Source: a virus (taxonomy: Duplodnaviria; Caudoviricetes). From it: a stretch of 52,837 nt of DNA. The DNA is taken from positions 1 through 52,837 of IMG/VR virus record IMGVR_UViG_3300002053_000024, one strand, 5' to 3'. The translations under genes and the position numbers were made by a program. Positions within the stretch are counted from its first letter, which is position 1; every line of letters starts with the position of its first letter. Below are positions 1,426-49,785 of this stretch, in pieces. The notes under the pieces are model-generated. The model searched no databases and was not told the DNA's origin. It was given only the letters and a program-made list of their open reading frames with translations.

Positions 1426-1440
1426 GGGGGTAGTAAAATG
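1426..1440 (+). promoter_or_regulatory. Phage-wide translation initiation motif GGGGGTAGTAAAATG (representative copy)
   Basis: Same or near-same motif before starts at 1438, 3020, 4810, 6068, 6583, 12927, 19102, 28716, 33668, 44968 (+) and 48038, 49289, 50526, 52388 (-). Confidence 0.85.
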
Positions 1441-3009
1441 GCAGGCACGATTAAAGGTGGAATGGACGAAGAAAAGCTTATCGAAACCAATTCGCTTTGG
1501 GATTTGTACTATTATGAATGGGTTTTTCTTAACGCCGCCTACGAAGGTGCGCGCGCGTTAATCAAGTTGGGCGCATTGTACCGGCACGAACGCGAAAGCA
1601 CAACGAACTATCAGCGCCGCGCAAACGAAGCATACGGTTTGTCGTATTCGCGAAGCATTATCGAAATATTGAATAGCTTTTTATTCAAAAACGAATTCGA
1701 CAGGCAGTTGGCAGAAAAGCTTGCTAACGATCCGCTTTTTCTTCTGTTTATGTCCGATTGCAATTTGCAGGGAACAAGTTTCGACCAGTTTTTTATCAAC
1801 TGGCAAAAAATGAGTTCGATCCAAGGTCACGCGGGAATACTGGTAGATAAACCTTTTTCTTCCGTTGCTACCCGACAAGAAGAAATAGACAAGCGCGTAT
1901 ATCCTTATTTGGCGGGCTATGCCCCGACTAACATACTAGATTGGGAATGGGAACGCGACGAATTCAACCGTCCATATCTAAGCTATTTGAAAGTAATTGA
2001 CAATGACGGGCAGTATAGAATATGGACAACCGAATATTGGGAAGTATGGGAATTGGCGGAAACCGAAGCGACCGTAGCAATTTCCCAAGAGCAGGCAACC
2101 CAAGTATCGATTACCGGAATACCCCCGAAAAGCCAAGCTGTAGGTCGTGCGGCGAATCTTATAAATGAAGGGGAAAACCAATTAGGCGAAATCCCTTTTA
2201 TTTGGCTTTTCAATGCTAGAAGTACTATCGATCCCGAAGTTGGCGTTAGCGACATTACCGATATAGCGCGAATTGATGCTTCGATTATCCGCAACCTTTC
2301 GCAGATAGAAGAAATTATCGACTACGCGGCTTTTCCAATGATGCGTATGCCTATGAAGGAAGCAGGCGCAGTAGATAAAAAGGACGAAGTGGGCGTAGTC
2401 GCCGTTTTGGAATTTGACCCCGAAAATCCAGATAGTAAACCAGATTGGTTGGATTCATCCGTAGCCGAACCGGTGGACGCAACGCTTTCGTTGATAGCGA
2501 AAAAGATAGAAGAAATATACCGTAGCAGTAATATAGGGGGTTTGGCAGCTACGGAAATTTCTTCGCAGGCCAAAAGTGGAGTAGCATTAAAAACTGAATT
2601 CCAGATGCTTAACAGTAAATTGGTGCAGAAGGGAAAGAACGTAGCAAAAGCGGAACGTGAAGCAATTAGGCTTTGGTTGAAATGGCAGAACATGGAAGAA
2701 CTAAACAAAGATACCCAAATAGGATCACCAGATACGTACGAAATCGAAGACCTTGCGGCAGACCTTGAAAACATGATGACAGGGGGAACTATCGTTAGCG
2801 GAAGTGAAACGTTTAAAAAGGAACTTCAAAAAGCAACGGTTCGAATGTTACTGCCAAGCTTGGATACGAAAATGCTATCAAAGATTGACAAAGAAATAGA
2901 CGCGGGCAAGCTTCCGACCATATCAAGTTCGCTATCAAGGGCGCGCGACCTATCGCAGCAGGGACGCGAAGATGAAGAATTCGAAGAAGAACCCGTAGAA
3001 GAAGAATAG
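1438..3009 (+). CDS. Portal protein
   Basis: Follows TerL; 523 aa; GHAGILVD, NQLGEIPFIWLFN and KSGVALK motifs typical of SPP1-like portals; acidic C-tail. Confidence 0.9.
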   Translation: MAGTIKGGMDEEKLIETNSLWDLYYYEWVFLNAAYEGARALIKLGALYRHERESTTNYQRRANEAYGLSYSRSIIEILNSFLFKNEFDRQLAEKLANDPLFLLFMSDCNLQGTSFDQFFINWQKMSSIQGHAGILVDKPFSSVATRQEEIDKRVYPYLAGYAPTNILDWEWERDEFNRPYLSYLKVIDNDGQYRIWTTEYWEVWELAETEATVAISQEQATQVSITGIPPKSQAVGRAANLINEGENQLGEIPFIWLFNARSTIDPEVGVSDITDIARIDASIIRNLSQIEEIIDYAAFPMMRMPMKEAGAVDKKDEVGVVAVLEFDPENPDSKPDWLDSSVAEPVDATLSLIAKKIEEIYRSSNIGGLAATEISSQAKSGVALKTEFQMLNSKLVQKGKNVAKAEREAIRLWLKWQNMEELNKDTQIGSPDTYEIEDLAADLENMMTGGTIVSGSETFKKELQKATVRMLLPSLDTKMLSKIDKEIDAGKLPTISSSLSRARDLSQQGREDEEFEEEPVEEE

Positions 3010-3019
3010 GGGGTAGCAA

Positions 3020-4786
3020 ATGCCAAGGATCATACGGACAAATAAACCCGTAAAGCGTCTTAGCATCCCAAGACCGCCGAAGCAGACCTATCGTAAGCAT
3101 GGTTTATCACATGGCAGCGCGGGGCGTTGGAAGACAGCGGAAGAAATAACGTATCCTGCTTATGTATGCGTTGCCGCCGATTACTTGGTGGATGGATACG
3201 AAGACCCTAACGGCAACGGCGGTTCGTTTTTTGGATACACCGGGGGGAACCAATCATGGGGGCAATCGTTTCTTGGCAATGGTGAATATCTGAAACGTGT
3301 CGGCGTACAATTATTTAGGCGCAACGATCCCCCCGACGCGAACGTTATATGTAGTATTTTCGCCCATAGCGGAACGTTTGGCTCTACCGGCGTGCCTACG
3401 GGAAGTGCGTTGGCAACTGCTTCCATTCCTTCCGGTAGGTTGAATCAAAATGCTACTCAGGATTTCCAATGGGAATACTTTGACTTCGACGGGACGCTGC
3501 AATTAGCAGATGGAACCCCATACTTCCTTGCAATCAGCGTTGATACCCCCGGCCCGAATAGTTCTAATTCTCATGGCATAGGTTGGGATAATAGTAGTCC
3601 TGTAGCCCCCGGTAATAGTGCTTTTCAAAATGCGGCCCTTTCTTGGGCCGCTTATCCTACTTCCGATTTGATGTTTGCTATTTGGACGGACGAAGCCAAA
3701 GACGCAGCGGACGTTAAGCCGTGGAATATCTATCCAATCTTGGGCAGTTATAATAATACAGGGGCCGTAACGGTTACGGGAAGAAATTATAGACAGTTGT
3801 ACTTGCCTTCTAGCACCGGACTAGGGCAAATGTCTACTTTACTATGTTTGGCAAGAATCCGCGTACAGGTATTTAACGATAATGGCGCTGCTGTTAACGT
3901 AGATTCACTTTACTTCGGGGAATACAGCGGAGCAGGCGGCAACTTCGCAGCAACCCCAACGCAAATTACTTTCGATGGTGCTTCCGGTTTTGTACTAGAC
4001 CCCGGCGAAACCCGTTGGTCGGATTGGGTAGATGTAAGTTGGCCGGGGACAACGGAAAACGGTTGGTTGTTTGCTTTCAAGTTTAGCAATAGCCCTTTTT
4101 CTGCCGTTACCCCGCGAACGCAGCCGGTTGTTTCCGTTGGTTGGTATAAGACCGACAGCGCGGACGAAAGTAGTTTGGTTACAATAAGCGGCTATAGTGA
4201 TGATACGGGGGGTACTCAAAGCAAATTGGTTGTCGCCGTACAGGGGCAAGCCGGTACGGACGTTTTTACTACCGCTTATCTAATGTCACAACTGGCAAGC
4301 CCCGGCGGGCCGTTTTCACAATTCAACGATGTAAACGTACGGCAGATTTTCCAAGCTTCGAATTTAACCGATATAGGAATAACCCCAACCCAAGTTCGGT
4401 TTTTACTATACGGTAGAAGTTCCGGTTTAAGCGGGGTTGAAAGTATGTACGTTGGATATCCCAACTTGCCGTGGGGCGCAGGCGAAGCAAATTTCAACGC
4501 CGCACCGGTTCCAGTTATTACTAGCAGATTTTCACTTCAAGCCGACGAATACCGTTGGACAGAATGGATAGATTTCGTTGTGGACGGTACAGATGATATT
4601 ATGATAGCACTTCGGGTTATCGATGGACGTACACAATTTAGCTTTGACAGCCCATTTACACCGGGGGGCGACGGGTACATTAGAACAAAGACCGGCGCGG
4701 ACGAAAGTAGTTTGCAGAATGTAACCGGATATGCCTACCCAAGTATCGACGATTTTGTGATGGTCATACGGATGGAGTCAAGATAA
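3020..4786 (+). CDS. Beta-rich multi-domain protein, probably virion-associated, with an internal duplication
   Basis: Basic N-terminus followed by G/S/T/aromatic-rich domains; two related modules (GETRWSDWVD..KTDSADESSL..SGY vs DEYRWTEWID..KTGADESSL..TGY). Confidence 0.6.
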   Translation: MPRIIRTNKPVKRLSIPRPPKQTYRKHGLSHGSAGRWKTAEEITYPAYVCVAADYLVDGYEDPNGNGGSFFGYTGGNQSWGQSFLGNGEYLKRVGVQLFRRNDPPDANVICSIFAHSGTFGSTGVPTGSALATASIPSGRLNQNATQDFQWEYFDFDGTLQLADGTPYFLAISVDTPGPNSSNSHGIGWDNSSPVAPGNSAFQNAALSWAAYPTSDLMFAIWTDEAKDAADVKPWNIYPILGSYNNTGAVTVTGRNYRQLYLPSSTGLGQMSTLLCLARIRVQVFNDNGAAVNVDSLYFGEYSGAGGNFAATPTQITFDGASGFVLDPGETRWSDWVDVSWPGTTENGWLFAFKFSNSPFSAVTPRTQPVVSVGWYKTDSADESSLVTISGYSDDTGGTQSKLVVAVQGQAGTDVFTTAYLMSQLASPGGPFSQFNDVNVRQIFQASNLTDIGITPTQVRFLLYGRSSGLSGVESMYVGYPNLPWGAGEANFNAAPVPVITSRFSLQADEYRWTEWIDFVVDGTDDIMIALRVIDGRTQFSFDSPFTPGGDGYIRTKTGADESSLQNVTGYAYPSIDDFVMVIRMESR

Positions 4787-4809
4787 ACAAAAGCAAAGGG
4801 GGTAGTAAA

Positions 4810-5223
4810 ATGAAACGTTACAAAAACTTTTTTAATTTGTTAGCGACTTTGATTATCGTTCTTCTTTTTGGCCTGCTGCTAATTCCTATGGCGCAGGCAG
4901 ACGATAAAAGCGTTACGTTTGCATGGGATTACCCGACCGATTACGACCAGATAACCCATTGGAAGCTATATTGGGGGACGCAGGCGGGCGGGCCTTATGA
5001 AACGGGCGAAGCGCAAATCAATAAATCCATGTTAGGAAGTACTACCCAAACGGATATTGTTATTCAGTACCCGCCAAATGCGAAGACCACGTATTATTAC
5101 GTATTGGTAGCATTTAAAGACGAACTTTACAGCGCGAATAGCAACGAAGTATCGGTAGAAGGGGATTTTCGCGAAAACCCCCTAGCCCCCCTTCAACTTC
5201 GGGTAATTTTATCAGGCGGTTGA
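4810..5223 (+). CDS. Signal-peptide protein with a single fibronectin type III-like domain
   Basis: Hydrophobic leader ending AQA; VTFAWD..WKLYWGT..GPY..TTYYYVLVAF..SANSNEVS Fn3 pattern. Confidence 0.75.
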   Translation: MKRYKNFFNLLATLIIVLLFGLLLIPMAQADDKSVTFAWDYPTDYDQITHWKLYWGTQAGGPYETGEAQINKSMLGSTTQTDIVIQYPPNAKTTYYYVLVAFKDELYSANSNEVSVEGDFRENPLAPLQLRVILSGG

Positions 5224-5254
5224 TTGCTTGGTTGTTGGAGTTGTTGGGGATAAA

Positions 5255-5726
5255 ATGAATAGTAATTACCCACGATTACGAAACATACTTTACGAAATCC
5301 TAACGGCGGGCGTCGATAGCGAACCTTCCGATATTACGGCTTTGCAGAATATGGGGGTTTCGCTATCTCCTGCCGATAACCAAAGTAACCGAAGCATTAA
5401 AGCTTTTAGACATTATCGACGCGCAGGCAGAACCCGAATTAGTTTTAGAAGCAGAAATTCCGTCGTCGATACCGAATATAAGGGAATTTATCGAAGAACG
5501 GTTGGAAAGGGAAATGTCACTAACCGGTTTTCTTCGTTTTATGGAAGTACTTTATATAATGATAGCAATAGAAACCTTGGGCGAAACAGAAACCAAACGC
5601 GTTCTACGTGTCCGCGAACAACGCATAGCGGCAGCGAAGGCGCAGAAAGGGACGGTAGAAAATGTCAGTAGTCAAACGCGGGGGGCGTTATTGAGTCGTG
5701 CATGGGCATCCCAAGAAAGCGGGTAG
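5255..5726 (+). CDS. Hypothetical helical protein with an apparent +1 frameshift at G5 (5353-5357)
   Basis: The frame from ATG 5255 reads protein-like up to ALQNMG; the +1 frame then continues FRYLLPITKVTEALKLLDIIDAQAEPEL..., while the original frame becomes R/S-rich off-frame-type text. Confidence 0.55.
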
Positions 5727-5847
5727 CAAAAGGGATAAGCCGAAGGGTTCGGCGATTAAATGCTACCCCGGCAATAAGGCAGGCTTGAAGAAAGCCCGCG
5801 CTATGCACTATGCTATTAGAATGTCGCAGGCACGAAGGGGGGGATAA
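5662..5847 (+). CDS. Small basic protein with in-frame TGA (candidate selenoprotein A, 61 aa)
   Basis: GGTAGAAAATG start; MSVVKRGGRY-[TGA 5692-5694]-VVHGHPKKAGSKRDKPKGSAIKCYPGNKAGLKKARAMHYAIRMSQARRGG*; frame stays open for 50 codons after the TGA. Confidence 0.6.
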
Positions 5848-5848
5848 C

Positions 5849-5917
5849 GTGGCGAAATCATGCGGCAGTAAAAAGAAGACCAAATCGAAGAAAGGAAAGA
5901 AAAAATGGCGCAAGTAG
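5849..5917 (+). CDS. Lys-rich microprotein (22 aa)
   Basis: GGGGGGGATAAC-GTG start; MAKSCGSKKKTKSKKGKKKWRK*; fills the gap between neighbours. Confidence 0.5.
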   Translation: MAKSCGSKKKTKSKKGKKKWRK

Positions 5918-6057
5918 GAAATCCGCAGCCCAATCAAGGCTTAGCAAGTCCGGTTAACCGTTCGTTGGCAACCCAAAAGGAAACCAACGTTAAACCTACA
6001 AAATGGATCAAGCGCAAAACCGGCGTTGTTAAGCCTGCAATCCCTAAAATGAAATAG
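5905..6057 (+). CDS. Small basic protein (50 aa)
   Basis: AAAGGA RBS; MAQVGNPQPNQGLASPVNRSLATQKETNVKPTKWIKRKTGVVKPAIPKMK*; its stop runs into the next RBS motif. Confidence 0.6.
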   Translation: MAQVGNPQPNQGLASPVNRSLATQKETNVKPTKWIKRKTGVVKPAIPKMK

Positions 6058-6067
6058 GGGGTAGTAA

Positions 6068-6250
6068 ATGGCGAAGCTACGCAAGGCCAAAAGCAAGTCG
6101 CAGGCGTGCGCTATCGGTTTTTCCAAAGCGCGCAAGGCAGGCGTATCCGGTAAATCAGCAGGCGCGGCTTGAGGAAAAGAAATGAAGCTTTTCCGGTCGG
6201 GAAAAGCAAGCCCGCGCAAGCTAGTTTTACCGCGCAAACGGAAGAAGTAA
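6068..6250 (+). CDS. Small basic protein with in-frame TGA and SECIS-like hairpin (candidate selenoprotein B, 60 aa)
   Basis: GGGGGTAGTAAATG start; MAKLRKAKSKSQACAIGFSKARKAGVSGKSAGAA-[TGA 6170-6172]-GKEMKLFRSGKASPRKLVLPRKRKK*. Confidence 0.65.
6187..6207 (+). promoter_or_regulatory. Bacterial SECIS-like hairpin GCTTTTCC-GGTCG-GGAAAAGC
   Basis: Perfect 8-bp stem; apical loop begins GGUC 22 nt after the in-frame UGA (E. coli fdhF SECIS loop is A-GGUC-U). Confidence 0.6.
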
Positions 6251-6259
6251 TGCTATTTT

Positions 6260-6553
6260 ATGACAGATGCACCGACGCTATCATTCGAAGAAAAGCGAAC
6301 TATCCGAAAGCAGATAAAACGCATAGGGGTAATTCGCTTTTTAGAAGAAGTCGCCAATATGTGCTTTGGCGAAGCCGAACGATTACGCCTGCATTGGGGC
6401 GATCCGCAATTTGCTAAGGTTTGGGCGCGTCGTGCGGAACTGTTTCATAGAATAGTTAGCAGTTTGCGCGAAGAAGAATTAACCGATCCACGACCAAAAA
6501 GGGTAGTAAAATCGAAATTCCCTTTGTTGGAATACTTTCGCAAAAGTGGCTGA
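6260..6553 (+). CDS. Hypothetical protein (97 aa)
   Basis: ORF in operon orientation with host-genome-typical codon use. Confidence 0.6.
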   Translation: MTDAPTLSFEEKRTIRKQIKRIGVIRFLEEVANMCFGEAERLRLHWGDPQFAKVWARRAELFHRIVSSLREEELTDPRPKRVVKSKFPLLEYFRKSG

Positions 6554-6582
6554 AATAATCAAGCTATCCGAAGGGGGTAGTA

Positions 6583-7011
6583 ATGGGCTTTCTAATGAAG
6601 GAAGAAGGGGGCGAAAGAAAGCTAAATATCGTCAACCTTTTAATCGCCGCTATAGTCGGCGTAGGCGTGCTATTAGGTGCGGGTTGGGGCGCACGCGAAT
6701 ACATGGACACGTACTGTACCGATAGCGAATTGCACGCGGCAGAAGTAAAGCTATCCGATAAAGACGCGGAATTGAAGAATTCCATTGCGGGGCTTTCCCG
6801 GCAGATAAACCAACAAAGTATTTTGATGCGTATTCGCGAATTGGAATCGCGCTTGGCGGACGCGGAAAAAACTTGCCCGCCCGATCCGCTTCATAATAGC
6901 AATTGCCCGCGCAGAATCAAATCCGACTATGAAGACGATTTGCGCGAATTAAATAAGCTACGTGACTTTATGCGGAAACTGGAAGAAAAGAACTTATTGG
7001 AAGCGCAATAA
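6583..7011 (+). CDS. Single-TM, coiled-coil membrane protein
   Basis: RBS motif; hydrophobic IVNLLIAAIVGVGVLLGAGWGA followed by a coiled coil with a Cys pair. Confidence 0.65.
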   Translation: MGFLMKEEGGERKLNIVNLLIAAIVGVGVLLGAGWGAREYMDTYCTDSELHAAEVKLSDKDAELKNSIAGLSRQINQQSILMRIRELESRLADAEKTCPPDPLHNSNCPRRIKSDYEDDLRELNKLRDFMRKLEEKNLLEAQ

Positions 7012-10000
7012 ATGGCACGCGACGTTGCAAAGATAGTAGAAAATACAGACGATTTCCTTAATCGGAATATCGACGGGCATCAACTACGTTTGCAAAAATC
7101 TATCGAAGACTTGGAAAAGCGTGTTATCAACCAAGTAAATTCGTTGCAAACAAACGCAGCGGGTAACTTGCTTGGGCCGAAGGTGAATTTAAAGCAGGCG
7201 CAGAAAGTACACAAGCAACTTACCGGGATTTTCGATAGTACTTATGGGGCAGGCGTGCGCGACGTTGTGGCAGGCTATGACGATGCCGCCGAACACGTTC
7301 TTACTTCGTATCGGGGTTTGGGCGTAGCTGCTAATTTCACCGGACAGGATAAAGCCCTTATCGATACATTGAAAGGAATTGACTTCGATAATTTTATGAA
7401 CTTGGGCCAAAGCGTAAACGAAGAAATCGTGCAGGCTATGTATAATGCCGTAGCAGGCGGGGCTTCGTTCGATTCGCTTTTAACGGCAGTAAAAGGAAAA
7501 CTAACCGGAAGCGTAGATGCCGCAGGCCGATCAATGGTTATCCATGCAAAGACATTAACCAACGATGCGTTAATGAATTTTCACAACCAAGTAAACCTTA
7601 ATCAAGCTAACGCCGCAGGCTTGAAGCATTTTCTTTACGTCGGCAACGTGATAGGAACCACGCGTGATTTTTGCGCCAAGCGCGCAGGCAAAGTATATTC
7701 GAAGAAAGTTATAGATAGTTGGAATTTCAATTGGCAGGGCAAAAGCGGGCCTGCGTTCACGCACCGGGGCGGTTATAATTGCCGCCACCATTGGCAGGGC
7801 GTAGACCCCGATTGGGTAGAAGGGGGTAGTATAGACGTACAGCGTTGGGAAGACTTGGACATAGAAGAACGCTACGATATTCTTCGCGGTGCGCTGTCCC
7901 CTTCCGAAAAGCTATTTAAGAAACGGTTGAATCAATTTCGCTACCATTTGAAAGTAAACAAATTCGGCGCGGACGGTGCGGGCTTCAACGTAGATGGTAA
8001 CATGGCGAAAATGTGGTATAACATTCCTGCCGCCGAACGCGCGAAGTTAATAGCAAGTTGGGAAAAGTCAAAGATCAATGTACCGGACGTGATAAAACAG
8101 AATTTAACGAAGCCGCTACCGCCTGCCGACTTTGTAGAAATACCGAAAAGCGTAGTTCCCGACAAACCCCCGATAAAACCGCCGCCCGCGCCGGTTGAAC
8201 CGCCGACGAAAGTAAAACCGCCCCCGATAGAAACGAATCCAGAGGAAATAATAGTAGCACCACCCGATCAACCCGCGCCTTCTAATGCAGGCGGGTATAA
8301 TTGGGGCGAATTAGACGAAAAGCAAAAGAAGTTAATGAACAATTTGCAATGGTACGTGAAAAGCGGGAAGAAGTTAGACCCCGACGGTGCTATGGTTTAT
8401 ACGTGGGATACGTTGAGCTATGAAACCCAACAAATGAAATTGAAGCAATGGACTTCGAAAGGTTTTACTATCCCGCCCGAACTGGTAATAAAAGGCGACA
8501 GCCTTACCGAAATTAATATTATTCAACAGGCAGCAGATATAGCAGATCAACCGTCCCCGAAGCCTTGGGCTTATAAATCCCTTGACGATGCGGTAGAACA
8601 AGTTAAAAAGGAATTCAAATTTAAAGACGGGGTGGATTTCGACGGGTTCGATACGGACGCGGATAAACTACTTCTTCTAAATGACTACGGCGCACATATG
8701 AACAATGTTTTACAAAGTAACCCGAAACTGCAAAGCATTGTAAACGATTGGGGGCATGGAACCAAGCTATCTTTTGCAAACCGTAGTACTTTAGGTGGCG
8801 GTACGTTGGGGGTTTACAGCGATACCGAATTTACTTTGAAGTTAGCAGCTAAACGCGCAATGAAAAACAACGCTGCGTTTGGTAAAAATGCTTTTACGGT
8901 GGGCGACGATTTCTTTACCGTGTCCCGGCACGAATTCGGACATTACGTAGACGAAACTATTCGAACATACCAAGGGCCGTGGCAGCAGGGGGGAACGAAA
9001 GGACTTGGGTTCAATCACCAAACCGAATGGCGCAAGGTTTTTCAATCTTATAGTAAAGAAGATTGGGCCAAAATGTTTGGAAAGTATTCTTCGGACAATA
9101 AATACGAAGGTTTTGCAGAAGTCTTCGCGCTTTACACTTCGTCTGAATATAAAGCCGGTACAATGCCATATAAGATCGAAGAATATATGCACCGGTTGTT
9201 AGGCGGGCCATTAGCAGAAGCGAATCCATCAACAGTAGTAAAACCAATAAAGAAGCCTAAAGTCACAAAGTCGGCAATACCGGCAAAGCTGCAAACTGCT
9301 TTTAAGAATCCCGAACACCAAGAAATGTTTAATCAAATGTTTACGGAATACCGGGAAAAGAAGCTAACTGTAGCGGAAATAAAAAACGAAATACGCGCAC
9401 GTTGTCCTAATGTCAGAACGGCATTAAATGATTGGCAGGGTAGTACGCAAACCCCGCGTGCTTCGGCGTTGAAGTTGAAAGCTGAATTGTTAGAAAATCG
9501 TAACGACATTAAATTTTTCGCCCGTAAGGGCAATACGCTTCAAATGAGTAAGATTCAGAGAATAGCAAACGAAATGCCCGACGAAGAATATTTGCGTATT
9601 CGTGCTATTGTCCAAGAATACTACGACCGCAAGAAAACAAAAACGGTTCCGCTTTATCGCGGAACAGACGGTAGAAATTCGGGGCCAGAATTTAGGCGAC
9701 GGATTAATGATGCTAAAGCTAGCATCCCCGAAGAAAATTGGAATACTGCCGAAGTACAGATAGAAGAACCAAGTTTGACGGGTTGGAGTTCTAGCGAAGC
9801 AATAGCAGACCGTTTCGGCGTGCGTTCGGGCGGCGTTACTGCTAGCGTGGATATTCCAACGGAAGAAATATTTATTCCCGATACCCTTTGGCCTAAAGTA
9901 AGCTATTCAACAGAAAAAGAATTTGTTGTTTTTAGCAAGTTTGAAGCGAAGTATAAATTATCCGAATTCAGAAGCGGTTATAAACCAACTATAGCAAAAG

Positions 10001-10395
10001 CGGCAAATGCGGAAGCATTGGCGCAAACTTCGTTGACCTTTTCTAAAGCGGTAGAATATCAGATACCCGATTTTTCATTGGTAATAGAATCCGAATTGCA
10101 AATGAAAGAAGCTATTTCTACTTACGTTGCGAAGCAGGCCGTAGCAACAGTAAATCAAACGGGCAAATTGTCTTCCGGTAACTGGAAAGCTTTGCTATCA
10201 AAGAAGATAAAAGGTGTAAAAGACGCAATAGCAAACGACGAAACCGTTAAAATATTTAATTCTAGCATAGGTTCGGATAAGAAGGAAAAGTTTTTAGAGC
10301 TATTGGAAGAAGCTTACAAGACCGTAGATTTATCGGGCGATAAGACCGGTGGCGAAATGAAGCTATTAAATATAATCATGGAAAGCTTGACATAA
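7012..10395 (+). CDS. MuF-family minor head protein with C-terminal metallopeptidase and ADP-ribosyltransferase-like domains
   Basis: MuF motif TTRDFC..HRGGYNCRHHW; Pro-rich linker; zincin HEFGH plus EGFAEVF; ART R-S-E-like pattern LYRGT..SLTGWSSS..TEKEFVV. Confidence 0.8.
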   Translation: MARDVAKIVENTDDFLNRNIDGHQLRLQKSIEDLEKRVINQVNSLQTNAAGNLLGPKVNLKQAQKVHKQLTGIFDSTYGAGVRDVVAGYDDAAEHVLTSYRGLGVAANFTGQDKALIDTLKGIDFDNFMNLGQSVNEEIVQAMYNAVAGGASFDSLLTAVKGKLTGSVDAAGRSMVIHAKTLTNDALMNFHNQVNLNQANAAGLKHFLYVGNVIGTTRDFCAKRAGKVYSKKVIDSWNFNWQGKSGPAFTHRGGYNCRHHWQGVDPDWVEGGSIDVQRWEDLDIEERYDILRGALSPSEKLFKKRLNQFRYHLKVNKFGADGAGFNVDGNMAKMWYNIPAAERAKLIASWEKSKINVPDVIKQNLTKPLPPADFVEIPKSVVPDKPPIKPPPAPVEPPTKVKPPPIETNPEEIIVAPPDQPAPSNAGGYNWGELDEKQKKLMNNLQWYVKSGKKLDPDGAMVYTWDTLSYETQQMKLKQWTSKGFTIPPELVIKGDSLTEINIIQQAADIADQPSPKPWAYKSLDDAVEQVKKEFKFKDGVDFDGFDTDADKLLLLNDYGAHMNNVLQSNPKLQSIVNDWGHGTKLSFANRSTLGGGTLGVYSDTEFTLKLAAKRAMKNNAAFGKNAFTVGDDFFTVSRHEFGHYVDETIRTYQGPWQQGGTKGLGFNHQTEWRKVFQSYSKEDWAKMFGKYSSDNKYEGFAEVFALYTSSEYKAGTMPYKIEEYMHRLLGGPLAEANPSTVVKPIKKPKVTKSAIPAKLQTAFKNPEHQEMFNQMFTEYREKKLTVAEIKNEIRARCPNVRTALNDWQGSTQTPRASALKLKAELLENRNDIKFFARKGNTLQMSKIQRIANEMPDEEYLRIRAIVQEYYDRKKTKTVPLYRGTDGRNSGPEFRRRINDAKASIPEENWNTAEVQIEEPSLTGWSSSEAIADRFGVRSGGVTASVDIPTEEIFIPDTLWPKVSYSTEKEFVVFSKFEAKYKLSEFRSGYKPTIAKAANAEALAQTSLTFSKAVEYQIPDFSLVIESELQMKEAISTYVAKQAVATVNQTGKLSSGNWKALLSKKIKGVKDAIANDETVKIFNSSIGSDKKEKFLELLEEAYKTVDLSGDKTGGEMKLLNIIMESLT

Positions 10396-28300: not shown

Positions 28301-28711
28301 ATGGCAGAAGAACAATTCCCGCATATAGTACTACCGGAATACGAAGGCCCGGAACGAAGGCGGACGTACCAATGCTTCTGTCATCCTAAACACCAAAAAG
28401 CTATTACTACGTTGGAAAAGCGCATGGATAAAAACGAAGACAGATTGGGCGGTACTGTACCGTGGAAAATATTTATTCCGATTATGGCCCCGCTAATGCT
28501 ATTGTTTGTCGCTGCGCTTTGGGGGATATTCGACAAGATATCCCAAATAAACGCAGATATGGCGGCTTTAAACACGCGTGCTATAACAACAGAAGAAAGG
28601 GTTGAACGAACGAACAATAAGATAGACAAATTGCACGACCAGATAGAAACGATAAAAGTCGAAATGCGGAAGTTAAACGGACACCATAAAGCAGGGGAAG
28701 CAGGGGGGTAG
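28301..28711 (+). CDS. Single-TM coiled-coil membrane protein (possible lysis accessory)
   Basis: YEGPERR motif, TM segment WKIFIPIMAPLMLLFVAALWGIF, coiled coil. Confidence 0.55.
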   Translation: MAEEQFPHIVLPEYEGPERRRTYQCFCHPKHQKAITTLEKRMDKNEDRLGGTVPWKIFIPIMAPLMLLFVAALWGIFDKISQINADMAALNTRAITTEERVERTNNKIDKLHDQIETIKVEMRKLNGHHKAGEAGG

Positions 28712-28715
28712 TAAA

Positions 28716-30986
28716 ATGACAAGGAAGATCATCTTTTCGCACCGTAGAGCAGTAGGGGACGCCCTAATGTTTACGTGCGGAGTAAGAGATTTCAAGCTAT
28801 TGTTTCCAGAAATTGAAATCGATGTAAGTAGTAATTTTAAGGATTCGGTTTTTCTTCACAATCCTTACCTAACCAAATTAAACAAAAAAGACGAAGGGGT
28901 AGAATTTTACAAAGTAGGATATCCGATTATCAATAACGCGAACGCGGCTAGTACGCATTTTACGCAAGGCTTTTTGTTCGATATGCTAGCGGCAGCGGAT
29001 TACCACGAACGTTTACCAATGCCGATTTATAAACTAATGTCCATGTTTTCAAACGGACGGATCGGCGACCCCGATATAAAAGTAGAAGAATTAAAACCGT
29101 ATCGCGATATCTGCAAAGACTTTCACCGGCAACGCCCCGACGTTCATCTAACCAAAGACGAAAAACGAACTAATATTATCCGCGATATGTACGGGGTAGA
29201 AAAGTATTGGGTTATCGCACCGGGGGGAAAGCGGGATTGCACGACAAAGATTTGGGATTGGCGGCGATTCCAAAAGGTAGTAGATTATTTCGACGGACAA
29301 ATAAAATTCGTGGTTGTCGGTCGAAGCGATCATTTGGTAGAGAAGCTACGCGGCGTTTTGGATTTGACGGACAAGTTCAATGATAACTTGCGCGGAATTT
29401 TCCCGCTTGTTTATCATAGCGAAGGGGTAGTAAGTGGCGTATCGTTTCTTATGCACCTTGCCGCTGCGTTCCCGGCAACGCACGAACAATTCGAAGCAAA
29501 GGGAAGAAAGCCCTGCGTAGCAATTTATGGCGGACGCGAACCGACTACTTTTACGTGCTATACCAATCACCAAGTTTTGCATACGAACGGAGCTTGGACG
29601 TGTTGCGATAACGGCGGGTGTTGGCAAAGTCGCGTCGTACCTATTATAAAAGACCCCGACAAAAATAATAGAATGTGTCATAACACCGTTGTTCGCGAAG
29701 GCAGAACTATCCAAGGTTGTATGGATAACATTACTGCCGACGATGTTATTCGTTCAATCGAAAAGTACTACCAAGGCAATATCTATCGCTACGCAATTAA
29801 AACGCGGACAACCAAAATAGAAGTACTACCAACCCAAGACAAAGTTACCGGTATTTCTTTATTGGGCTTAAAACCAAAACCGCTTTTTTATCGCCTGCGA
29901 CCAAGCAAGAAAGAAATCATTTTTCTTGCGTCCATGAAAAGCAAAGGCGGCGGCGAACAAAGCGCAGCGCATATAGTAGAACTAATGCGGGCGGCGGGTT
30001 GGAAAGTCCACTTTGTACCATATGCAGACGTACACGAAAACTTCAAAGGAATACAGTTAGCCCCGTACGACTTTTCCACGCTTGCGGCTAACCAGAAGCC
30101 CGATATACCCCTTTTCTTTTATGCCAACGATCAGATATGGGATTTTTGCGAAAAGGCCCAAGAAATCGTTGCTAAAGCGTCTGCGGTCGGTATTGGGATC
30201 AACTTTGCGAACGGTTCGCTACCGAAATGTAAATGGTTGCACGAAACCGGCAAATTGAAAGCGGTAGTATTTCAGAATGAAGAAAAGCGCGACGAATTCG
30301 ACCGGGACGTTATCGGATTCGAAAACACAAACAGAGTAGTACTTTTTGGCGCAATCAATCTTGATAAGTTCCTTGATATTTGTCCGCCGAATCGAAACGG
30401 TAGCGGTAGCAAAGACTTTGTTGTATTGAAACATGGTCTACCGGATTGGCGCAAATACGTTACTAACCAAAGCCAAGGAACCGGGGACAAGATTCATATT
30501 TGGCAAAAGAAGTTCTTTAAGGAAACCGACGCCGAATTTTATTCCCGCTTGCTAAAAGATATTCCCGATATCCGATTCGAATTCATGGAAGCGCACCCCG
30601 AAGTAATAGACGCTTTCAAAGACGAACCGCGAATGAAGTTCTACAAGTTTAACGAAATACCGGTAGAAGAATTCTTGGCGCGCGGACACGTCTACTTGCA
30701 TCGTATGTCTAACGCGTGGCGCGACCAGTACCCCCGCGTAGTTGCCGAAGCATTGGCAGCGGGCCTGCCGGTACTATCCGAACCGCGCGACGGAACGAAG
30801 GACAGGATCATTCACGGCAATACTGGCTTTTACTGCTGTCATTACGACGAATACCTTTTGAATTTGAAAACCCTTAAACGAAAGGAAGGACTTCGTTCTA
30901 CTATGGGGCAGTTTGCAAAGGATTGGGCGCGGCAGAATTTAGACCCGCGCCGATGGTTGGACGTTCTAGAACAGAATCTTTTTTAA
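28716..30986 (+). CDS. Fused glycosyltransferase: GT9 (heptosyltransferase-like) plus GT4-like GT-B domain
   Basis: RAVGDALM..HNPY..IAPGGK..KIW..SFLMHLAAA..CVAIYGG; second half GGGEQS..DQYPRVVAEALAAGLPVLS..HGNTGF. Confidence 0.85.
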   Translation: MTRKIIFSHRRAVGDALMFTCGVRDFKLLFPEIEIDVSSNFKDSVFLHNPYLTKLNKKDEGVEFYKVGYPIINNANAASTHFTQGFLFDMLAAADYHERLPMPIYKLMSMFSNGRIGDPDIKVEELKPYRDICKDFHRQRPDVHLTKDEKRTNIIRDMYGVEKYWVIAPGGKRDCTTKIWDWRRFQKVVDYFDGQIKFVVVGRSDHLVEKLRGVLDLTDKFNDNLRGIFPLVYHSEGVVSGVSFLMHLAAAFPATHEQFEAKGRKPCVAIYGGREPTTFTCYTNHQVLHTNGAWTCCDNGGCWQSRVVPIIKDPDKNNRMCHNTVVREGRTIQGCMDNITADDVIRSIEKYYQGNIYRYAIKTRTTKIEVLPTQDKVTGISLLGLKPKPLFYRLRPSKKEIIFLASMKSKGGGEQSAAHIVELMRAAGWKVHFVPYADVHENFKGIQLAPYDFSTLAANQKPDIPLFFYANDQIWDFCEKAQEIVAKASAVGIGINFANGSLPKCKWLHETGKLKAVVFQNEEKRDEFDRDVIGFENTNRVVLFGAINLDKFLDICPPNRNGSGSKDFVVLKHGLPDWRKYVTNQSQGTGDKIHIWQKKFFKETDAEFYSRLLKDIPDIRFEFMEAHPEVIDAFKDEPRMKFYKFNEIPVEEFLARGHVYLHRMSNAWRDQYPRVVAEALAAGLPVLSEPRDGTKDRIIHGNTGFYCCHYDEYLLNLKTLKRKEGLRSTMGQFAKDWARQNLDPRRWLDVLEQNLF

Positions 30987-33667: not shown

Positions 33668-34930
33668 ATGAAAATCGGTATCTTGACACATTTTCTCGGA
33701 TTCCAAGATTCGTACGCGCTACACGTCGGATGGTTGGAACGGGCAAAATTGTTGGAGTACTTCGGACAGGATTTCGACTTTCTGGTAGATCACAAATGCC
33801 CGGAAGGTCTTTATCCAAATCAAAAATCGATTCTTCCCCGAATAAAAGAAAGCCGGGACTTCGAAGCAAAGGTAACTTTTTTCGAAGAAGCGTACAAAGC
33901 TTTGCTAAAAGATTACGATGCTATTCTTACCGCCGATATCATGTACCAATCAAAGAATAACTTCCTTTGCTATAACCAAGCGGTACGTAATGCGGCGAAA
34001 GAATTAAAAGCGCATTGGTATCATTGGATACATTCAAGTTGGAACTATCGGCCTAATGGCATACGGTATCCAGAAACACTTCGCTACGATTACATGGAAG
34101 GTAGTAAAATAATCTACCTTAGTTCCTACGAATTAAATCAGGTAGCACAAATGTATAATACTTCGCCGAAGAACGTCTATTGTGTTTATAATCCAAAGGA
34201 CGTTCGAAGCTTTTTTGACTTCGATCCGTTAGCGTGGAAAATATGCAAAGAATTAGAGCTATGGAAAAAGGACGTTGTTCAAATTTTCCCGCATTGTTCT
34301 ACCCGAATGAAAGCAAAAGGGGTACACGCGATAGCTAAAGTATTTTCAGCTTTGAAACGTGCGGGCCTGCAAGTTGCTATTATCTTTGCCAACGCCAATT
34401 CCCGAAGCGTGCAAAATGAATTAGCAGAATTCAAAAAGCACCTTGAAACAAAATACAAACTTTATGAAGGCTACGATTTCATTTTTACTAGCGATATGAT
34501 GGAAAATTTTAAACCGCTTCCACGTAAAGCCGTAGCCGATCTATATAGGGTAGCTAATTTATTTGTCTTCGGCAGTTGGCGCGAAACAGTCGGCAACGCA
34601 TTTCAAGAAGCAATGATTAGCGATAACCTTTTGGTTCTTAATCAGAACGTCCCTTCAAACGTAGAAATGGCGGGGCGTGATGCTATCTACTTCGAATATC
34701 ATTATGTAACCCCCGGCAAATTAGCTAGCGGGCCTGCTAAAATGCAAAGCGGGAATTTTAAGGTTATCAAATACGGGGATGGATCATTGGAACACGAAGA
34801 AGGATATTTTGATAATATCGCAAAGCGCATTATTGGAATACTACCTTCGCGCGAACACATTTGGAAATTCTCTTATGAATGGATTTGGGAAAATCAGCTA
34901 AGACCGCTTTTGTACGGGGTGGATATATGA
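33668..34930 (+). CDS. GT-B (GT4-like) glycosyltransferase
   Basis: MKIGILT, WIHS, KGVH, DLYRVANLFVFGSWRETVGNAFQEAM. Confidence 0.8.
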   Translation: MKIGILTHFLGFQDSYALHVGWLERAKLLEYFGQDFDFLVDHKCPEGLYPNQKSILPRIKESRDFEAKVTFFEEAYKALLKDYDAILTADIMYQSKNNFLCYNQAVRNAAKELKAHWYHWIHSSWNYRPNGIRYPETLRYDYMEGSKIIYLSSYELNQVAQMYNTSPKNVYCVYNPKDVRSFFDFDPLAWKICKELELWKKDVVQIFPHCSTRMKAKGVHAIAKVFSALKRAGLQVAIIFANANSRSVQNELAEFKKHLETKYKLYEGYDFIFTSDMMENFKPLPRKAVADLYRVANLFVFGSWRETVGNAFQEAMISDNLLVLNQNVPSNVEMAGRDAIYFEYHYVTPGKLASGPAKMQSGNFKVIKYGDGSLEHEEGYFDNIAKRIIGILPSREHIWKFSYEWIWENQLRPLLYGVDI

Positions 34931-45141: not shown

Positions 45142-45485
45142 ACGAAACAACCATAATCGGCAAGGGTTCCGCTTTCTTCGTGTTTGAAACACCATTCGCA
45201 AAGAAAGCGGTTCCCTTTTTTTCTTGGTCGGACGCCGCAACAGGAACAAAGATTATCCGGTTTAGATAGTACTTCCCTTTGTGTTATTTCTTTTCTTGCG
45301 CCTTGTTTTATTGCCTTTACAAGCGTGTAGCTGCAATTAAAAAAGTCCGCAGTTTTAGCTATCGAATACCCTTCCTTCAACTTCGCTTCTACGTCTTCGT
45401 TTTTTATGTCGTAGCGATAGCGTTTAGGCGTTGGGTTTCTTTTCAACTGCTGTAGACGGTGCAACGTACGTTCCAACTTTCTCAT
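45138..45485 (-). CDS. HTH plus Cys4 zinc-finger protein (putative regulator)
   Basis: GYSIAKTADFFNCSYTLV HTH; CSCC..CEWC; GGGGG RBS before ATG 45485. Confidence 0.65.
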   Translation of the reverse strand: MRKLERTLHRLQQLKRNPTPKRYRYDIKNEDVEAKLKEGYSIAKTADFFNCSYTLVKAIKQGARKEITQREVLSKPDNLCSCCGVRPRKKGNRFLCEWCFKHEESGTLADYGCFV

Positions 45486-45897
45486 TTTGCGCCCCCAATG
45501 ATTCAAGAAAAGTGTCAATGTTTTTTACTACCTTTTCTTCGTTATACTTTTCCAGAATTTTTGGAACGCGTTTAATAAGTCCGCGCAGTTCTTCGCCTTC
45601 GTTTACCAATTTCTTCTTTCTGTTTATAAAGCCCATGCGCGACTTATTATACAGGCGTAGCAAATTATTTCTGTTCCACCAGTAAGCGTAGACATACTTT
45701 AGTTGTGCATCGTCGGTTTCTTTTATTTTGTTCCATAGCGGACGGTTAAAAGCCCCCGACCATATTTCCCATTCATCCATGTAAAGTTTCGTATCTGCCG
45801 TTTTGATAGCTTTTAATCCGGTTTTGAAATGCTTATCGATTTGGTCGGTTAAATAAAACGGTTCGAATTTTGCTACTTCTTTTGGTATAATGCTCAT
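45424..45897 (-). CDS. Hypothetical protein
   Basis: TAATG coupling to the upstream gene. Confidence 0.6.
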   Translation of the reverse strand: MSIIPKEVAKFEPFYLTDQIDKHFKTGLKAIKTADTKLYMDEWEIWSGAFNRPLWNKIKETDDAQLKYVYAYWWNRNNLLRLYNKSRMGFINRKKKLVNEGEELRGLIKRVPKILEKYNEEKVVKNIDTFLESLGAQNEKVGTYVAPSTAVEKKPNA

Positions 45898-46508
45898 TAG
45901 TCCACCCTTTCTACTTTTGAAATTCCATCATGCGTTACAATATACTTTGTATCCGCCATTGATGCAAGTTCGCTTTCGTGCGTAACTACTATCAATTGCA
46001 CGCCTAACCGGTCGGCGATTTCCCTTAACACGTTACCGGCGCGTTCCAATAGTAAACCTTTTCCGACAAACTTCATTGGTTCGTCGAGAATAAATAGGTT
46101 ACGCGCTTTCGGATTTTCGATAGACCAAAGAACAACCCGCATAGCAAAAGAAGTAATATCAATGATACCGCCGCCCACGTCTTCTTTAGGGATATATTCT
46201 TTATCCCCTTCCATTATCCTTGGCGTACATTCAACCCGTCCGCGCTTGCGTTCGAATTGCAAATCGAAAGTAAATGGACGGTCGAATATGGAAGAAATTG
46301 CTAACGTTACCAAAGCATCTACACGCGCTTTTAATTTTTCTTGCGTCAAACGAACTACTTCCGTTATTACCCATTGCGCTTTAATTAGGTTTTTTTCCTG
46401 TTCGCGCAGGCTTTCTTTTTTCAGAAGTAGTTTTTTCTTCGTATTCGTCAATATCGTCCGCTTCGAATACAAGGTGTCTATCCTTGATTGCATTGTCGAT
46501 AAATTCAT
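45897..46508 (-). CDS. sbcC: SbcC/Rad50-like ATPase, C-terminal half
   Basis: Coiled coil, signature-like VGGG, Walker B LFILDEP, H-loop VTHE; no Walker A. Confidence 0.8.
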   Translation of the reverse strand: MNLSTMQSRIDTLYSKRTILTNTKKKLLLKKESLREQEKNLIKAQWVITEVVRLTQEKLKARVDALVTLAISSIFDRPFTFDLQFERKRGRVECTPRIMEGDKEYIPKEDVGGGIIDITSFAMRVVLWSIENPKARNLFILDEPMKFVGKGLLLERAGNVLREIADRLGVQLIVVTHESELASMADTKYIVTHDGISKVERVD

Positions 46509-46860
46509 CTACGCGGCCTTTTACATAAACTTCATTGTTACGGGTATATTGTACTAAGGTTTCCATCATAACATATTGGCGCGCTTGCGTCATTTCGATT
46601 TCTACTTCAAGTTCTTTCAGTTCTTTTCTTATGGCGCGCATTTCTTCTTCGAACAATTGTTTTTGTACTTTCAATTTATCGCGCGCGTCCCTATGTTCTG
46701 AATGTGTTAGCGGTTCGGGGCGCGTAATAACCGTCATAGCAGTTAATCCCCCATAACCAATAATACTACCTACCAACGATCCGATAAGAACAGATATATA
46801 AATATGTTCTTCGATGAAATCGGAAAAAGAATTTTTCCATCTTCTAATAGTTCTAAACAT
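46381..46860 (-). CDS. Single-TM coiled-coil hypothetical protein
   Basis: Hydrophobic IYISVLIGSLVGSIIGYGGL followed by a coiled coil. Confidence 0.55.
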   Translation of the reverse strand: MFRTIRRWKNSFSDFIEEHIYISVLIGSLVGSIIGYGGLTAMTVITRPEPLTHSEHRDARDKLKVQKQLFEEEMRAIRKELKELEVEIEMTQARQYVMMETLVQYTRNNEVYVKGRVDEFIDNAIKDRHLVFEADDIDEYEEKTTSEKRKPARTGKKPN

Positions 46861-47104
46861 GGTTGTATTTCTCCAATTTTTTTTCTACAGAACGTAGCAA
46901 ATTTTTAGCGCGCTTCTCCAATTCCAAAACTTCGGCGGTAAGCTTCTTCTGCAATTTTTCTACTTCATCCAAAGAAGCCGAAACGCCAAATTCATTTTTA
47001 AGCGTTTCGGCTAATTCTTTCTTTTTGGATTCGTAGATAGCTTTGTTTGTTTTTAAATTATCGATTCTTTCTTTTATTTCAGCTATCCGTTGCGCGAAGT
47101 CCAT
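46853..47104 (-). CDS. Small coiled-coil protein
   Basis: Heptad-rich 83 aa in the SbcCD cluster. Confidence 0.65.
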   Translation of the reverse strand: MDFAQRIAEIKERIDNLKTNKAIYESKKKELAETLKNEFGVSASLDEVEKLQKKLTAEVLELEKRAKNLLRSVEKKLEKYNHV

Positions 47105-48038
47105 TTAATAACCTTTCCACTATTTTTACTACTTCCCGGTTCAAATTCTTTACTGTTTTCATGTATTCCGACAAGGCAACGTGTATATCAATAGTGGCGC
47201 TATCTACCTGTTGCATTGATTCCGTAAACTCCGTTAGCATCTGCGTTATTTCTTTATCCCGGTCTAAATGTTCGCGCGTCAATACTTGTTCTGCCGGTCG
47301 CACGTCTAACGGGATCGTATGAATTTTATTTGTAACGGTATCAAGTAATGCTACTATTGGTTGGTGATTGAACATATTCGCTTCGGCAGTATTTCGCATT
47401 AAAGGCCCGGTATTGATAATAGACCTTTCATATGCCCCGCCTTCGCCCGCCCGCAAATAAAAGTATTTGTGGATATCCCCACAAAGGATAACGTCATAGT
47501 CGGGGTGATTCTTTAAGAATTCCAACGCGGGCGTACAGGGGACGTGCGGAAAGTTTTCGGGCTTTTCCGTTATTCTGTCGTGAATAACAAGTATATTATA
47601 CATTTCCTTTCCATTTTCTTCTACTACTGGAACTTGTTCACCCCAACTTGCACCATATACGCGGACGCTTGCGCTATTGGAATACATACCGCCTAATAGC
47701 AAAGGTCTTTCGTGTAATAATGATACGTACCCCATGTTTAAAAGCGTGCTAACAACGTTAATGCTTTTGCGGTTGCGTTGATAAATATCGTGCTGTCCGA
47801 ATACAGTAGCGATATCTACGTTGCGGTGTCGAAGTAATGCTACCATTAAATTCAGATATTCCCATTCGCGCGCTTGGTCGCCGAAATCCCCTGCTATCAA
47901 TATTGGGGCATTGGCATCCTTGGCAATTTTTAACACCTGTCGGAACTTGTGTAGAAAGGTCGCCGAATAGTCTTCGTCGGTACGCGCAATCGGTCTTTTG
48001 GTCGTGCCGTGTACGTCCGATAAAAGAACAAGTTTCAT
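47079..48038 (-). CDS. sbcD: SbcD/Mre11-like metallophosphoesterase nuclease
   Basis: SDVH, AGDFGD, GQHD, GDIH motifs. Confidence 0.88.
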   Translation of the reverse strand: MKLVLLSDVHGTTKRPIARTDEDYSATFLHKFRQVLKIAKDANAPILIAGDFGDQAREWEYLNLMVALLRHRNVDIATVFGQHDIYQRNRKSINVVSTLLNMGYVSLLHERPLLLGGMYSNSASVRVYGASWGEQVPVVEENGKEMYNILVIHDRITEKPENFPHVPCTPALEFLKNHPDYDVILCGDIHKYFYLRAGEGGAYERSIINTGPLMRNTAEANMFNHQPIVALLDTVTNKIHTIPLDVRPAEQVLTREHLDRDKEITQMLTEFTESMQQVDSATIDIHVALSEYMKTVKNLNREVVKIVERLLNGLRATDS

Positions 48039-49123: not shown

Positions 49124-49289
49124 GTAACCCCATATATTCGTTAAGCTTGCTTGCAAGCCGCTTGCATAGCTGAATGTAAAGCCTTTTGGTTATTCCTACT
49201 TGTCCGTCGCCTATCAGAAAAGAATCCGACCACGTACGGTAGGTAAGACCGTCTTCGTAAATATCGATTGAAATTTTGACGTACGGCAT
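49083..49289 (-). CDS. Hypothetical protein
   Basis: GGGGGTAGTAAATG start. Confidence 0.65.
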   Translation of the reverse strand: MPYVKISIDIYEDGLTYRTWSDSFLIGDGQVGITKRLYIQLCKRLASKLNEYMGLRAKANRDKQLPKS

Positions 49290-49299
49290 TTACTACCCC

Positions 49300-49527: not shown

Positions 49528-49536
49528 TGTTCCCCC

Positions 49537-49784: not shown

Positions 49785-49785
49785 T

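Follow-up and report, generated by a model that had tools for sequence, protein, structure and literature searches.

Two neighbouring genes of an uncultured tailed phage from sediment, the open reading frames (ORFs) designated here ORF A and ORF B, are each interrupted by one in-frame UGA that probably encodes selenocysteine (Sec), a reading that is held more firmly for ORF A than for ORF B. Both lie in the IMG/VR virus record IMGVR_UViG_3300002053_000024, the whole of which (52,837 bases; completeness estimate 62%) was analysed and is referred to as the window; a head and packaging module occupies its left end. A first-pass annotation, made from the letters alone, had described two Lys/Arg-rich ORFs of about 60 residues, each with one TGA, a continuation to a TAA and a single Cys 21-23 residues from the TGA, and this layout was verified at the following coordinates.

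5662..5847, plus strand: ORF A, from ATG 5662 to TAA 5845-5847; 61 codons, Lys/Arg-rich
5692..5694, plus strand: in-frame TGA, codon 11 of ORF A, proposed selenocysteine
5761..5763, plus strand: partner Cys34 codon (TGC), the sole Cys of ORF A, 23 residues from the TGA
6068..6250, plus strand: ORF B, from ATG 6068 to TAA 6248-6250; 60 codons, Lys/Arg-rich
6107..6109, plus strand: Cys14 codon (TGC), the sole Cys of ORF B; TGA at the same position in the homologue on contig L032
6170..6172, plus strand: in-frame TGA, codon 35 of ORF B, proposed selenocysteine, 21 residues from Cys14
5654..5664, plus strand: start motif GGTAGAAAATG, ending in the ORF A ATG; one of 15 matches in the window
6060..6070, plus strand: start motif GGTAGTAAATG, ending in the ORF B ATG; one of 15 matches in the window

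From the comparisons described below we infer Sec insertion, the Sec competence of the host, the chemistry of the residue pair and a function in the virion.

Based on sequence comparisons, ORF A belongs to a phage-only family. A search with its read-through product (MSVVKRGGRY-U-VVHGHPKK...) retrieved 11 proteins, and the nine that are full-length all carry Cys precisely at the TGA site, in the motif C-V-V-H-G-H; the two closest matches are annotated from VVHGH or VHGH on, that is, from just past the site. On viral contigs (the window and L004-L032) the site is TGA in 10 of 30 copies and TGT or TGC in 20, while metagenome contigs have TGA at six of 27 loci, Cys at 18 and Ala at three. Deduplication left 41 distinct 108-nt segments (11 with TGA, 29 with TGT or TGC and one with neither), a set that does not include loci L058, L059 and L060. 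The TGA alternates only with Cys, in 29 distinct Cys forms, and never with Trp, Arg or Gly. The partner Cys34 is nearly invariant across the 41-sequence alignment. Alternation of TGA with Cys at the exact site, with conservation on both sides and neither TAA, TAG nor Trp among the homologues, is the pattern that the first-pass annotation had proposed to look for.

A tree of family A was built with the codon site and the hairpin columns removed, which left 83 columns, so that it is only roughly resolved. It contains eight changes between TGA and Cys, at least five of which are forced by well-supported branches, compared with 9.8 for shuffled labels. Since the two forms are interleaved on the tree, the TGA forms are not one clade and did not arise by one accident. 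Contigs with TGA include the window, L004, L009, L013, L014, L021, L026, L031, L033, L034 and L036; L016, L007 and L039 are Cys-bearing sisters. Two further occurrences gave no lead to a host: L060 is a Cys form on one short contig of a metagenome-assembled genome, and in four Clostridium loci the likeness is limited to a 22-residue stretch within an unrelated protein.

The ratio of non-synonymous to synonymous polymorphism (pN/pS) is nearly the same in the two forms on either side of the site; as synonymous sites are near saturation, the values are comparative only. Over the eight upstream codons it is 0.55 in TGA forms and 0.58 in Cys forms, and over the 24 downstream codons 0.18 and 0.19, respectively; the upstream stretch of the TGA forms read in the other two frames gives 0.98 and 1.49. 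Both flanks of the ORF A TGA are under in-frame purifying selection, as they are in the Cys forms.

It is very improbable that the TGAs are nonsense mutations in decaying genes, or errors of sequencing or assembly, even though TGC or TGT becomes TGA by a single substitution, the window is a metagenome contig and the frame may be disturbed a short way upstream, near 5390. Eleven distinct TGA sequences are spread over many contigs with intact downstream frames, and the downstream codons are under purifying selection. The stretch is identical in contigs of other sequencing runs from three studies (X2 and X3 over its whole length, X4 over 5566-5779), and TGA 5692 is therefore not an assembly slip; X2 and X3 may include the source sample of the window, and among these contigs they alone cover TGA 6170. 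Where the first-pass annotation had left room for reads carrying TGC, TGT or TGG, the independent contigs carry TGA. A related strain in run X5 has C>T at position 5763, which changes the Cys34 codon from TGC to the synonymous TGT; this variant is seen in one contig at depth 2.6 and may be an error.

An alternative that we consider unlikely is that the TGAs are real stops. ORF A would then yield a 10-residue peptide and a 49-residue protein from GTG 5698, and ORF B a 34-residue DUF6496-like protein and a 22-residue ORF from ATG 6182. Both of these start codons exist, gene callers agree with such a division (P0015 at 34 aa, P0020 at 39 aa, and P0007 and P0010 beginning at VVHGH or VHGH), and the 34-residue product would terminate at roughly the same point as true DUF6496 members. 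The selection on the eight upstream codons, in frame and as in the Cys forms, is however not accounted for, and in a confident predicted fold these codons form strand 1 and part of strand 2. No ATG, GTG or TTG is present in the two codons after the TGA in 7 of the 11 TGA forms, so that re-initiation is no general answer, and Met39 of ORF B is replaced by Ile or Val in nine of the ten other members that reach that column. Unlike in random truncation, only codons of the paired Cys positions are hit, although five other codons in each ORF of the window are one step from TGA.

The sites of initiation also bear on this alternative. The window contains 15 matches to the motif GGTAGNAA(0-3 nt)ATG where 0.27 would be expected, and none of 100 shuffles reached 15; the sites include ATG 5662 and ATG 6068, as the first-pass annotation had claimed. 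The copy GGTAGAAAATG at the ORF A ATG places initiation upstream of the TGA. The strong motif is absent before 5698 and 6182. Other matches, for example 1429-1440, 3012-3022, 4801-4812 and 28707-28718, are often preceded by GGG, and the motif is an unusual ribosome-binding context that might aid host prediction.

Codes in which TGA is a sense codon (table 4, Trp; table 25, Gly) occur in bacteria and some phages, and such a code, used throughout by phage and host, would open both genes without Sec. We give this explanation hardly any credence. Among 48 long ORFs of the window, picked by eye, the terminator is TAA in 24, TAG in 13 and TGA in 11, and the TGA group takes in the ATGA overlaps at 28283 and at 32359 as well as a stop at 34928-34930; TGA is accordingly a normal stop elsewhere, as had been noted at first reading. 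With table 11, stop-to-stop frames of at least 100 codons already cover 96% of the window, ORFs run to 1423 codons without an internal TGA, and the same picture is seen at the TGA-bearing loci of relatives. The aligned residue is Cys and not Trp or Gly. A scan of all in-frame TGAs with open flanks, judged by eye, found only ORF A and ORF B to be protein-like on both sides.

No tRNA was found in the window by ARAGORN, and neither tRNA-Sec, any other tRNA, SelA nor a SelB-wing domain was found in five phage records, one of which is 100% complete (89 kb) and carries a TGA form (L026). With no decoding machinery in the phage records, decoding would fall to the host, which fits the earlier proposal that the phage borrows the Sec machinery of its host. 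The runs that hold the stretch are labelled as marine sediment, seawater or lagoon metagenomes, settings in which Sec-using anaerobes are common.

In both families the TGA falls on one member of a pair of Cys positions that are kept or lost together, and the single Cys noticed 21-23 residues away at first reading is a real partner. Sites 11 and 34 of family A are lost jointly in L055 (Ala, Glu), L058 (Ala, Lys) and L059 (Ala, Ser); the exception is L046, with Cys11 kept and Ser at 34. Family B, which is unrelated in sequence to family A, has the following states at sites 14 and 35.

Cys at both sites: P0014, P0016, P0017, P0018 and P0024
Cys at neither site: P0019, P0021, P0022 and P0025
Cys14 with TGA35: the window
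TGA14 with Cys35: the homologue on L032, which adjoins the ORF A homologue of L032
Ending just before site 35: P0020

TGA35 of ORF B is aligned with Cys in P0014, P0016, P0017, P0018, P0024 and the L032 homologue. Each ORF of the window has five further codons that are one step from TGA. That both families have TGA at one of two coupled Cys positions, and that a relative has it at the other, is hard to explain except by insertion of a Cys-like residue. A small Lys-rich protein with two Cys (…KCV…NPEAVCA…) is encoded just upstream of the ORF A homologue in L017 (2821-2973), L044 (2321-2473) and L056 (540-695), and possibly represents a third family of paired-Cys micro-proteins in head modules.

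Sequence and profile comparisons indicate that ORF B is a distant relative of DUF6496 (PF20106) with an added second helix. Its residues 6-25 match positions 32-51 of the 58-position DUF6496 profile at 22.9 bits, below the Pfam cut-off of 24, and a profile of family B retrieves PF20106-carrying proteins at E ~2e-4. The AlphaFold2 model (mean predicted local distance difference test score, pLDDT, 79.7) has helices at 10-24 and 28-44. Searches of viral contigs for further relatives gave none with profile A2 and the Cys-less L065 and L066 alone with profile A4, and two back-translated DNA patterns for TGA-bearing ORF B genes returned chance matches and L032's own contig only.

Read-through without Sec would also produce full-length proteins, either by near-cognate Trp, Cys or Arg tRNAs, with the UGA as an attenuator, or by a Cys-charged tRNA that depends on SelB; anaerobes have tRNA(Cys) species resembling tRNA(Sec). 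Selection on both flanks and a downstream hairpin fit programmed read-through equally well, and neither Sec machinery nor a host was identified by way of the five phage records searched. The site nevertheless alternates solely with Cys, in 29 distinct forms, and not with Trp, Arg or Gly, and in each of two unrelated families it is one of two coupled Cys positions, a pairing that Trp or Arg would destroy. Routine insertion of Cys at UGA by standard tRNAs is, to our knowledge, without a bacterial example. We accordingly rate this explanation as having a small chance of being correct, and prefer insertion of Sec.

A hairpin that may serve as a selenocysteine insertion sequence (SECIS) is found downstream of each UGA.

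5706..5727, plus strand: putative SECIS hairpin of ORF A, GC-A-UCCC, 8-nt loop, GGGU-A-GC; begins 11 nt past the UGA and forms five of the six family pairs
6187..6207, plus strand: putative SECIS hairpin of ORF B, 8-bp stem GCUUUUCC/GGAAAAGC, loop GGUCG; begins 14 nt past the UGA

The family A form (GC-A-UCCC, an 8-nt loop and GGGA-A-GC, starting 11 nt after the UGA) is selectively kept in TGA forms, in line with the first-pass proposal of a UGA served by a 3' hairpin. The proportion of paired cells is 86.4% in TGA forms and 56.2% in Cys forms, for which shuffling gives a mean of 56.7%. Compensatory changes are seen at three pairs among the TGA forms (e.g. CCCG/CGGG in L026), which none of 500 shuffles reached. 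Mean local energy is -7.0 kcal/mol in TGA forms versus -3.4 kcal/mol in Cys forms (one-sided Mann-Whitney p = 0.0012), and at least five of the six pairs are present in 9 of 11 TGA forms versus 7 of 27 Cys forms (p = 0.003), both p values being uncorrected for kinship. The Pro codon is CCC in 10/11 TGA and 4/27 Cys forms, and G stands at +23 in 8/11 and 2/27, respectively. The ORF B hairpin is the minimum-free-energy structure of 6170-6229, in a single TGA-bearing sequence. The E. coli fdhF SECIS has an exposed G at position 23 and an exposed U at 24, counting from the U of UGA; in the ORF B hairpin a G-U is at 27-28 on the same count. The SECIS evidence is suggestive for family A, and the hairpins of the window's own two genes are of candidate grade.

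Several observations weigh against Sec, most of them concerning the hairpins. That of ORF A in the window is weak, with five of six pairs, -5.9 kcal/mol and a loop (AAGAAAGC) without G at +23. In the sister sequence L004 only two of the six pairs remain, and one has to fall back on another stem, of 5 bp with a 19-nt loop; the stem common to the window and L004 pairs AUCCC at 5708-5712 with GGGAU at 5732-5736 (window positions). The family hairpin is also found in 7 of 27 Cys forms and overlaps Pro (CCN) and Gly (GGN) codons. Folding z-scores of whole segments are unremarkable (ORF A -0.34, ORF B -0.76, L032 -0.91), and no Rfam SECIS or other credible family was detected in 5600-6300 or in 11 related loci. 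There are five phylogenetically independent pairs of TGA and Cys forms, too few to reach significance, of which 2.3-3.7 go the same way and none the opposite way (p 0.125-0.5). As to ORF B, each TGA site is known from one DNA sequence (site 35 from the window and site 14 from L032), and P0020, which stops just before site 35, is only presumed to end at a TGA.

An AlphaFold2 model of ORF A from the 41-sequence alignment (pLDDT 91.3) has strands at 2-6, 9-13 and 31-36 and a helix at 39-58, and the N-terminal hairpin made by the first two strands spans TGA codon 11. No Pfam or PHROG family matched ORF A, and a Foldseek search with the model found nothing at E <= 0.001 in PDB or BFVD. The best structural matches, at Z 5.1 (half of a PH domain), 4.8 (AP2, 6sy0) and 3.5 (lambda Int, 2wcc), are all below a meaningful level; AP2 and the lambda Int N-domain are DNA-binding domains built of a three-stranded sheet and a helix. 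An ESM Atlas search with the natural Cys homologue P0003 returned only unnamed, all-viral clusters. An HNH-like nuclease was considered for ORF A on the basis of a C-x2-H-x-H ... C ... H pattern and its position adjoining the terminase; as it found no profile or fold support, it is kept as a lead only.

The setting of ORF A homologues in five annotated loci is the packaging region: in L009 and L032 the homologue stands between the terminase and the portal, in L021 and L031 it directly precedes the terminase, and in L014 it is downstream of the terminase. In L011 and L026 an ORF A-type domain is fused N-terminally to proteins matching head-maturation-protease and DUF2213 families, in the TGA form in L026. 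The L026 gene (2986-4734) encodes a protein of ~580 residues with matches to DUF2213 and head-maturation-protease PHROGs, of which the TGA-bearing domain is the N-terminus; if this TGA is read as Sec, the product is a large phage selenoprotein. In L012 (3031-4530), as in L042, a Cys-form domain is N-terminal to a D12-class N6-adenine DNA methyltransferase. Context, fusions and basic composition tentatively point to a small DNA-binding or head-interior module.

The proposed mechanism is as follows. ORF A and ORF B would be selenoprotein genes of a lytic-type tailed phage, in which ribosomes start at ATG 5662 and ATG 6068, a hairpin within the coding sequence 11-14 nt past the UGA recruits host SelB with Sec-tRNA(Sec), and Sec is inserted to give full-length products of 61 (ORF A) and 60 (ORF B) residues. 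In each protein Sec would replace one Cys of the conserved pair, and the product would consequently carry a Sec-Cys pair: in the models, residue 11 on strand 2 with Cys34 on strand 3 of ORF A, and Cys14 on helix 1 with residue 35 on helix 2 of ORF B. The pair would most simply form a selenylsulfide cross-link, or else a redox or metal centre; for ORF A a metal site is conceivable instead, His14 being invariant and His49 nearly invariant in its family. Selenylsulfides are harder to reduce than disulfides, and such a link could thus persist in a reducing cytoplasm or in anoxic sediment. Both proteins would be small and highly basic parts of the head and packaging module, and probably bind DNA.

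A wider proposal, which is possible but on balance doubtful, is that tailed phages of anoxic marine sediments build Sec into structural, DNA-associated head and packaging proteins, with a selenylsulfide in place of the disulfide of their relatives, and that virion assembly is thereby tied to the Sec machinery of the host and to the supply of selenium. If true, this would be a new gate on host range and nutrients and would give the first selenoproteins with an architectural rather than a catalytic role. The repeated switching from Cys to Sec, at least five times in one 60-residue family, would then reflect a trade-off that is decided anew as phages change between Sec-competent and Sec-incompetent hosts.

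The portal block and the protease gene are separated by a group of tiny basic ORFs, to which ORF A and ORF B belong. The left-end module of the window also contains the scaffold and the major head protein, and the features around the two genes and at the other end of the window are listed here.

67-1425: large terminase, head and packaging module
1438-3009: portal, head and packaging module
5849..5917, plus strand: Lys-rich micro-ORF of 22 codons with a GTG start and one Cys, between ORF A and ORF B, read from sequence
5905..6057, plus strand: basic micro-ORF of 50 codons, between ORF A and ORF B
7012-10395: head protein of 1127 residues, of which 93-527 match a head-maturation-protease PHROG
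within 45424-52388, minus strand: calcineurin-like phosphoesterase and AAA_23 ATPase (an SbcCD-like pair), PDDEXK endonuclease, 5'-3' exonuclease and RecA-like protein

The 22-codon micro-ORF, which has no homologue in the fetched loci and no family match, may be part of the same system as ORF A and ORF B; for the 50-codon micro-ORF no family and no clear homologue in the fetched loci were found. The 1127-residue protein is probably a multi-domain head-internal protein, and its residues 636-712 give a sub-threshold Pfam match to the ATLF domain family (23.4 bits; cut-off 27.4). The minus-strand region 45424-52388 is a recombination and replication module.

Upstream of ORF A, the gene from ATG 5255 is protein-like only to about 5390, after which another frame, open over 5304-5726, is protein-like (…KLLDIIDAQAEPEL…). 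This second frame has no ATG, GTG or TTG before 5502 and overlaps the start of ORF A by 65 nt. The change is suggestive of a +1 frameshift (either programmed or due to an assembly indel) or of a non-canonical start; the fetched loci hold no homologues of 5255-5726. Contig L003 (16,762 bases) has a portal gene that is 100% identical and reaches about 12 kb past the left end of the window, so that further sequence of this phage genome is available. Searches for syntenic relatives with the 588-aa protein, the 1127-aa protein and the portal found only this near-identical contig, which ends before the ORF A/B region, and the phage GenBank collection gave no match by blastn of 5200-6600 or tblastn of ORF A.

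Viral selenoproteins are known from eukaryotic viruses. The accessible text of a 2021 review of viral recoding names only the glutathione peroxidases (GPx) of poxviruses, namely molluscum contagiosum virus and fowlpox virus (PMC8310308). Like these, ORF A and ORF B would be virus-encoded genes with a UGA redefined as Sec by the host machinery, and the fowlpox SECIS is likewise in the coding region; the poxvirus enzymes, however, are captured cellular enzymes decoded by a eukaryotic SECIS and SBP2 system (PMC8310308). The families of ORF A and ORF B are phage-specific, with no cellular counterpart found, and presumably depend on the bacterial SelB system. Our search for viral selenoprotein literature returned eukaryotic viruses only. 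No report of a phage selenoprotein was found by title or by the start of the abstract in the full-text literature searched, outside which most subscription journals and supplements lie, and the word 'phages' is absent from the Sargasso Sea and GOS selenoproteome papers; the first-pass annotation, too, had known of no well-established case. If Sec is confirmed, ORF A and ORF B would be the first selenoproteins described in a bacteriophage.

Some phages reassign TAG or TGA genome-wide. As in stop-codon recoded phages, the in-frame stops here are in phage structural genes and lead gene callers to shorten them. ORF A and ORF B differ in having one site per gene, always with a paired Cys, in a genome where TGA is a normal stop and no suppressor tRNA was found. 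For ORF B a further comparison is with DUF6496 (PF20106), three aligned members of which, unlike ORF B, are extended far at the N-terminus, carry Ile or Val in place of the first Cys and lack the second helix.

The closest parallel is with bacterial selenoproteins decoded through SelB and SECIS. According to the available part of the Sargasso Sea selenoproteome study, a new selenoprotein is one with at least two Cys homologues, no fewer than two distinct sequences carrying a conserved in-frame TGA, and a stem-loop downstream whose small apical loop contains a G (PMC1088965). ORF A has 29 distinct Cys homologues and 11 TGA sequences, and its family hairpin, with a G in an 8-nt loop, is enriched in TGA forms, the window copy being weak and L004 lacking it. 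On these comparative grounds family A would be classed as a new selenoprotein family (PMC1088965). Site 35 of ORF B has six Cys homologues and a hairpin in a single sequence; with one TGA sequence per site, short of the two asked for, it ranks by the same rule as a candidate (PMC1088965).

If this reading is true, dependence of phage head-module proteins on the SelB pathway is a novel kind of reliance on the host, with consequences for predicting host range, and gene callers systematically mis-annotate such virome genes by shortening them, as in P0007, P0010, P0015 and P0020. It would also add two selenoprotein families without an enzyme fold and provide, in a 60-residue protein with a short hairpin, a compact natural system for asking why Sec is chosen over Cys.

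As far as the available text of the Sargasso Sea study extends, the phage genes share with bacterial selenoproteins a UGA aligned with Cys, a sporadic occurrence of (putative) Sec among commoner Cys forms, a candidate adjacent stem-loop with a G in a small loop and a partner Cys (PMC1088965). Most selenoproteins of that survey are predicted redox proteins with a catalytic Sec (PMC1088965). ORF A and ORF B differ in being phage genes for which no Sec machinery of their own was found, in encoding basic head and packaging proteins of about 60 residues, and in having neither a thioredoxin-like CxxU motif nor a recognisable enzyme fold, with the paired residues 21-23 positions apart. The decoding chemistry would thus be a known one, and what is new would be its phage carrier and the non-enzymatic protein families in which Sec is placed.

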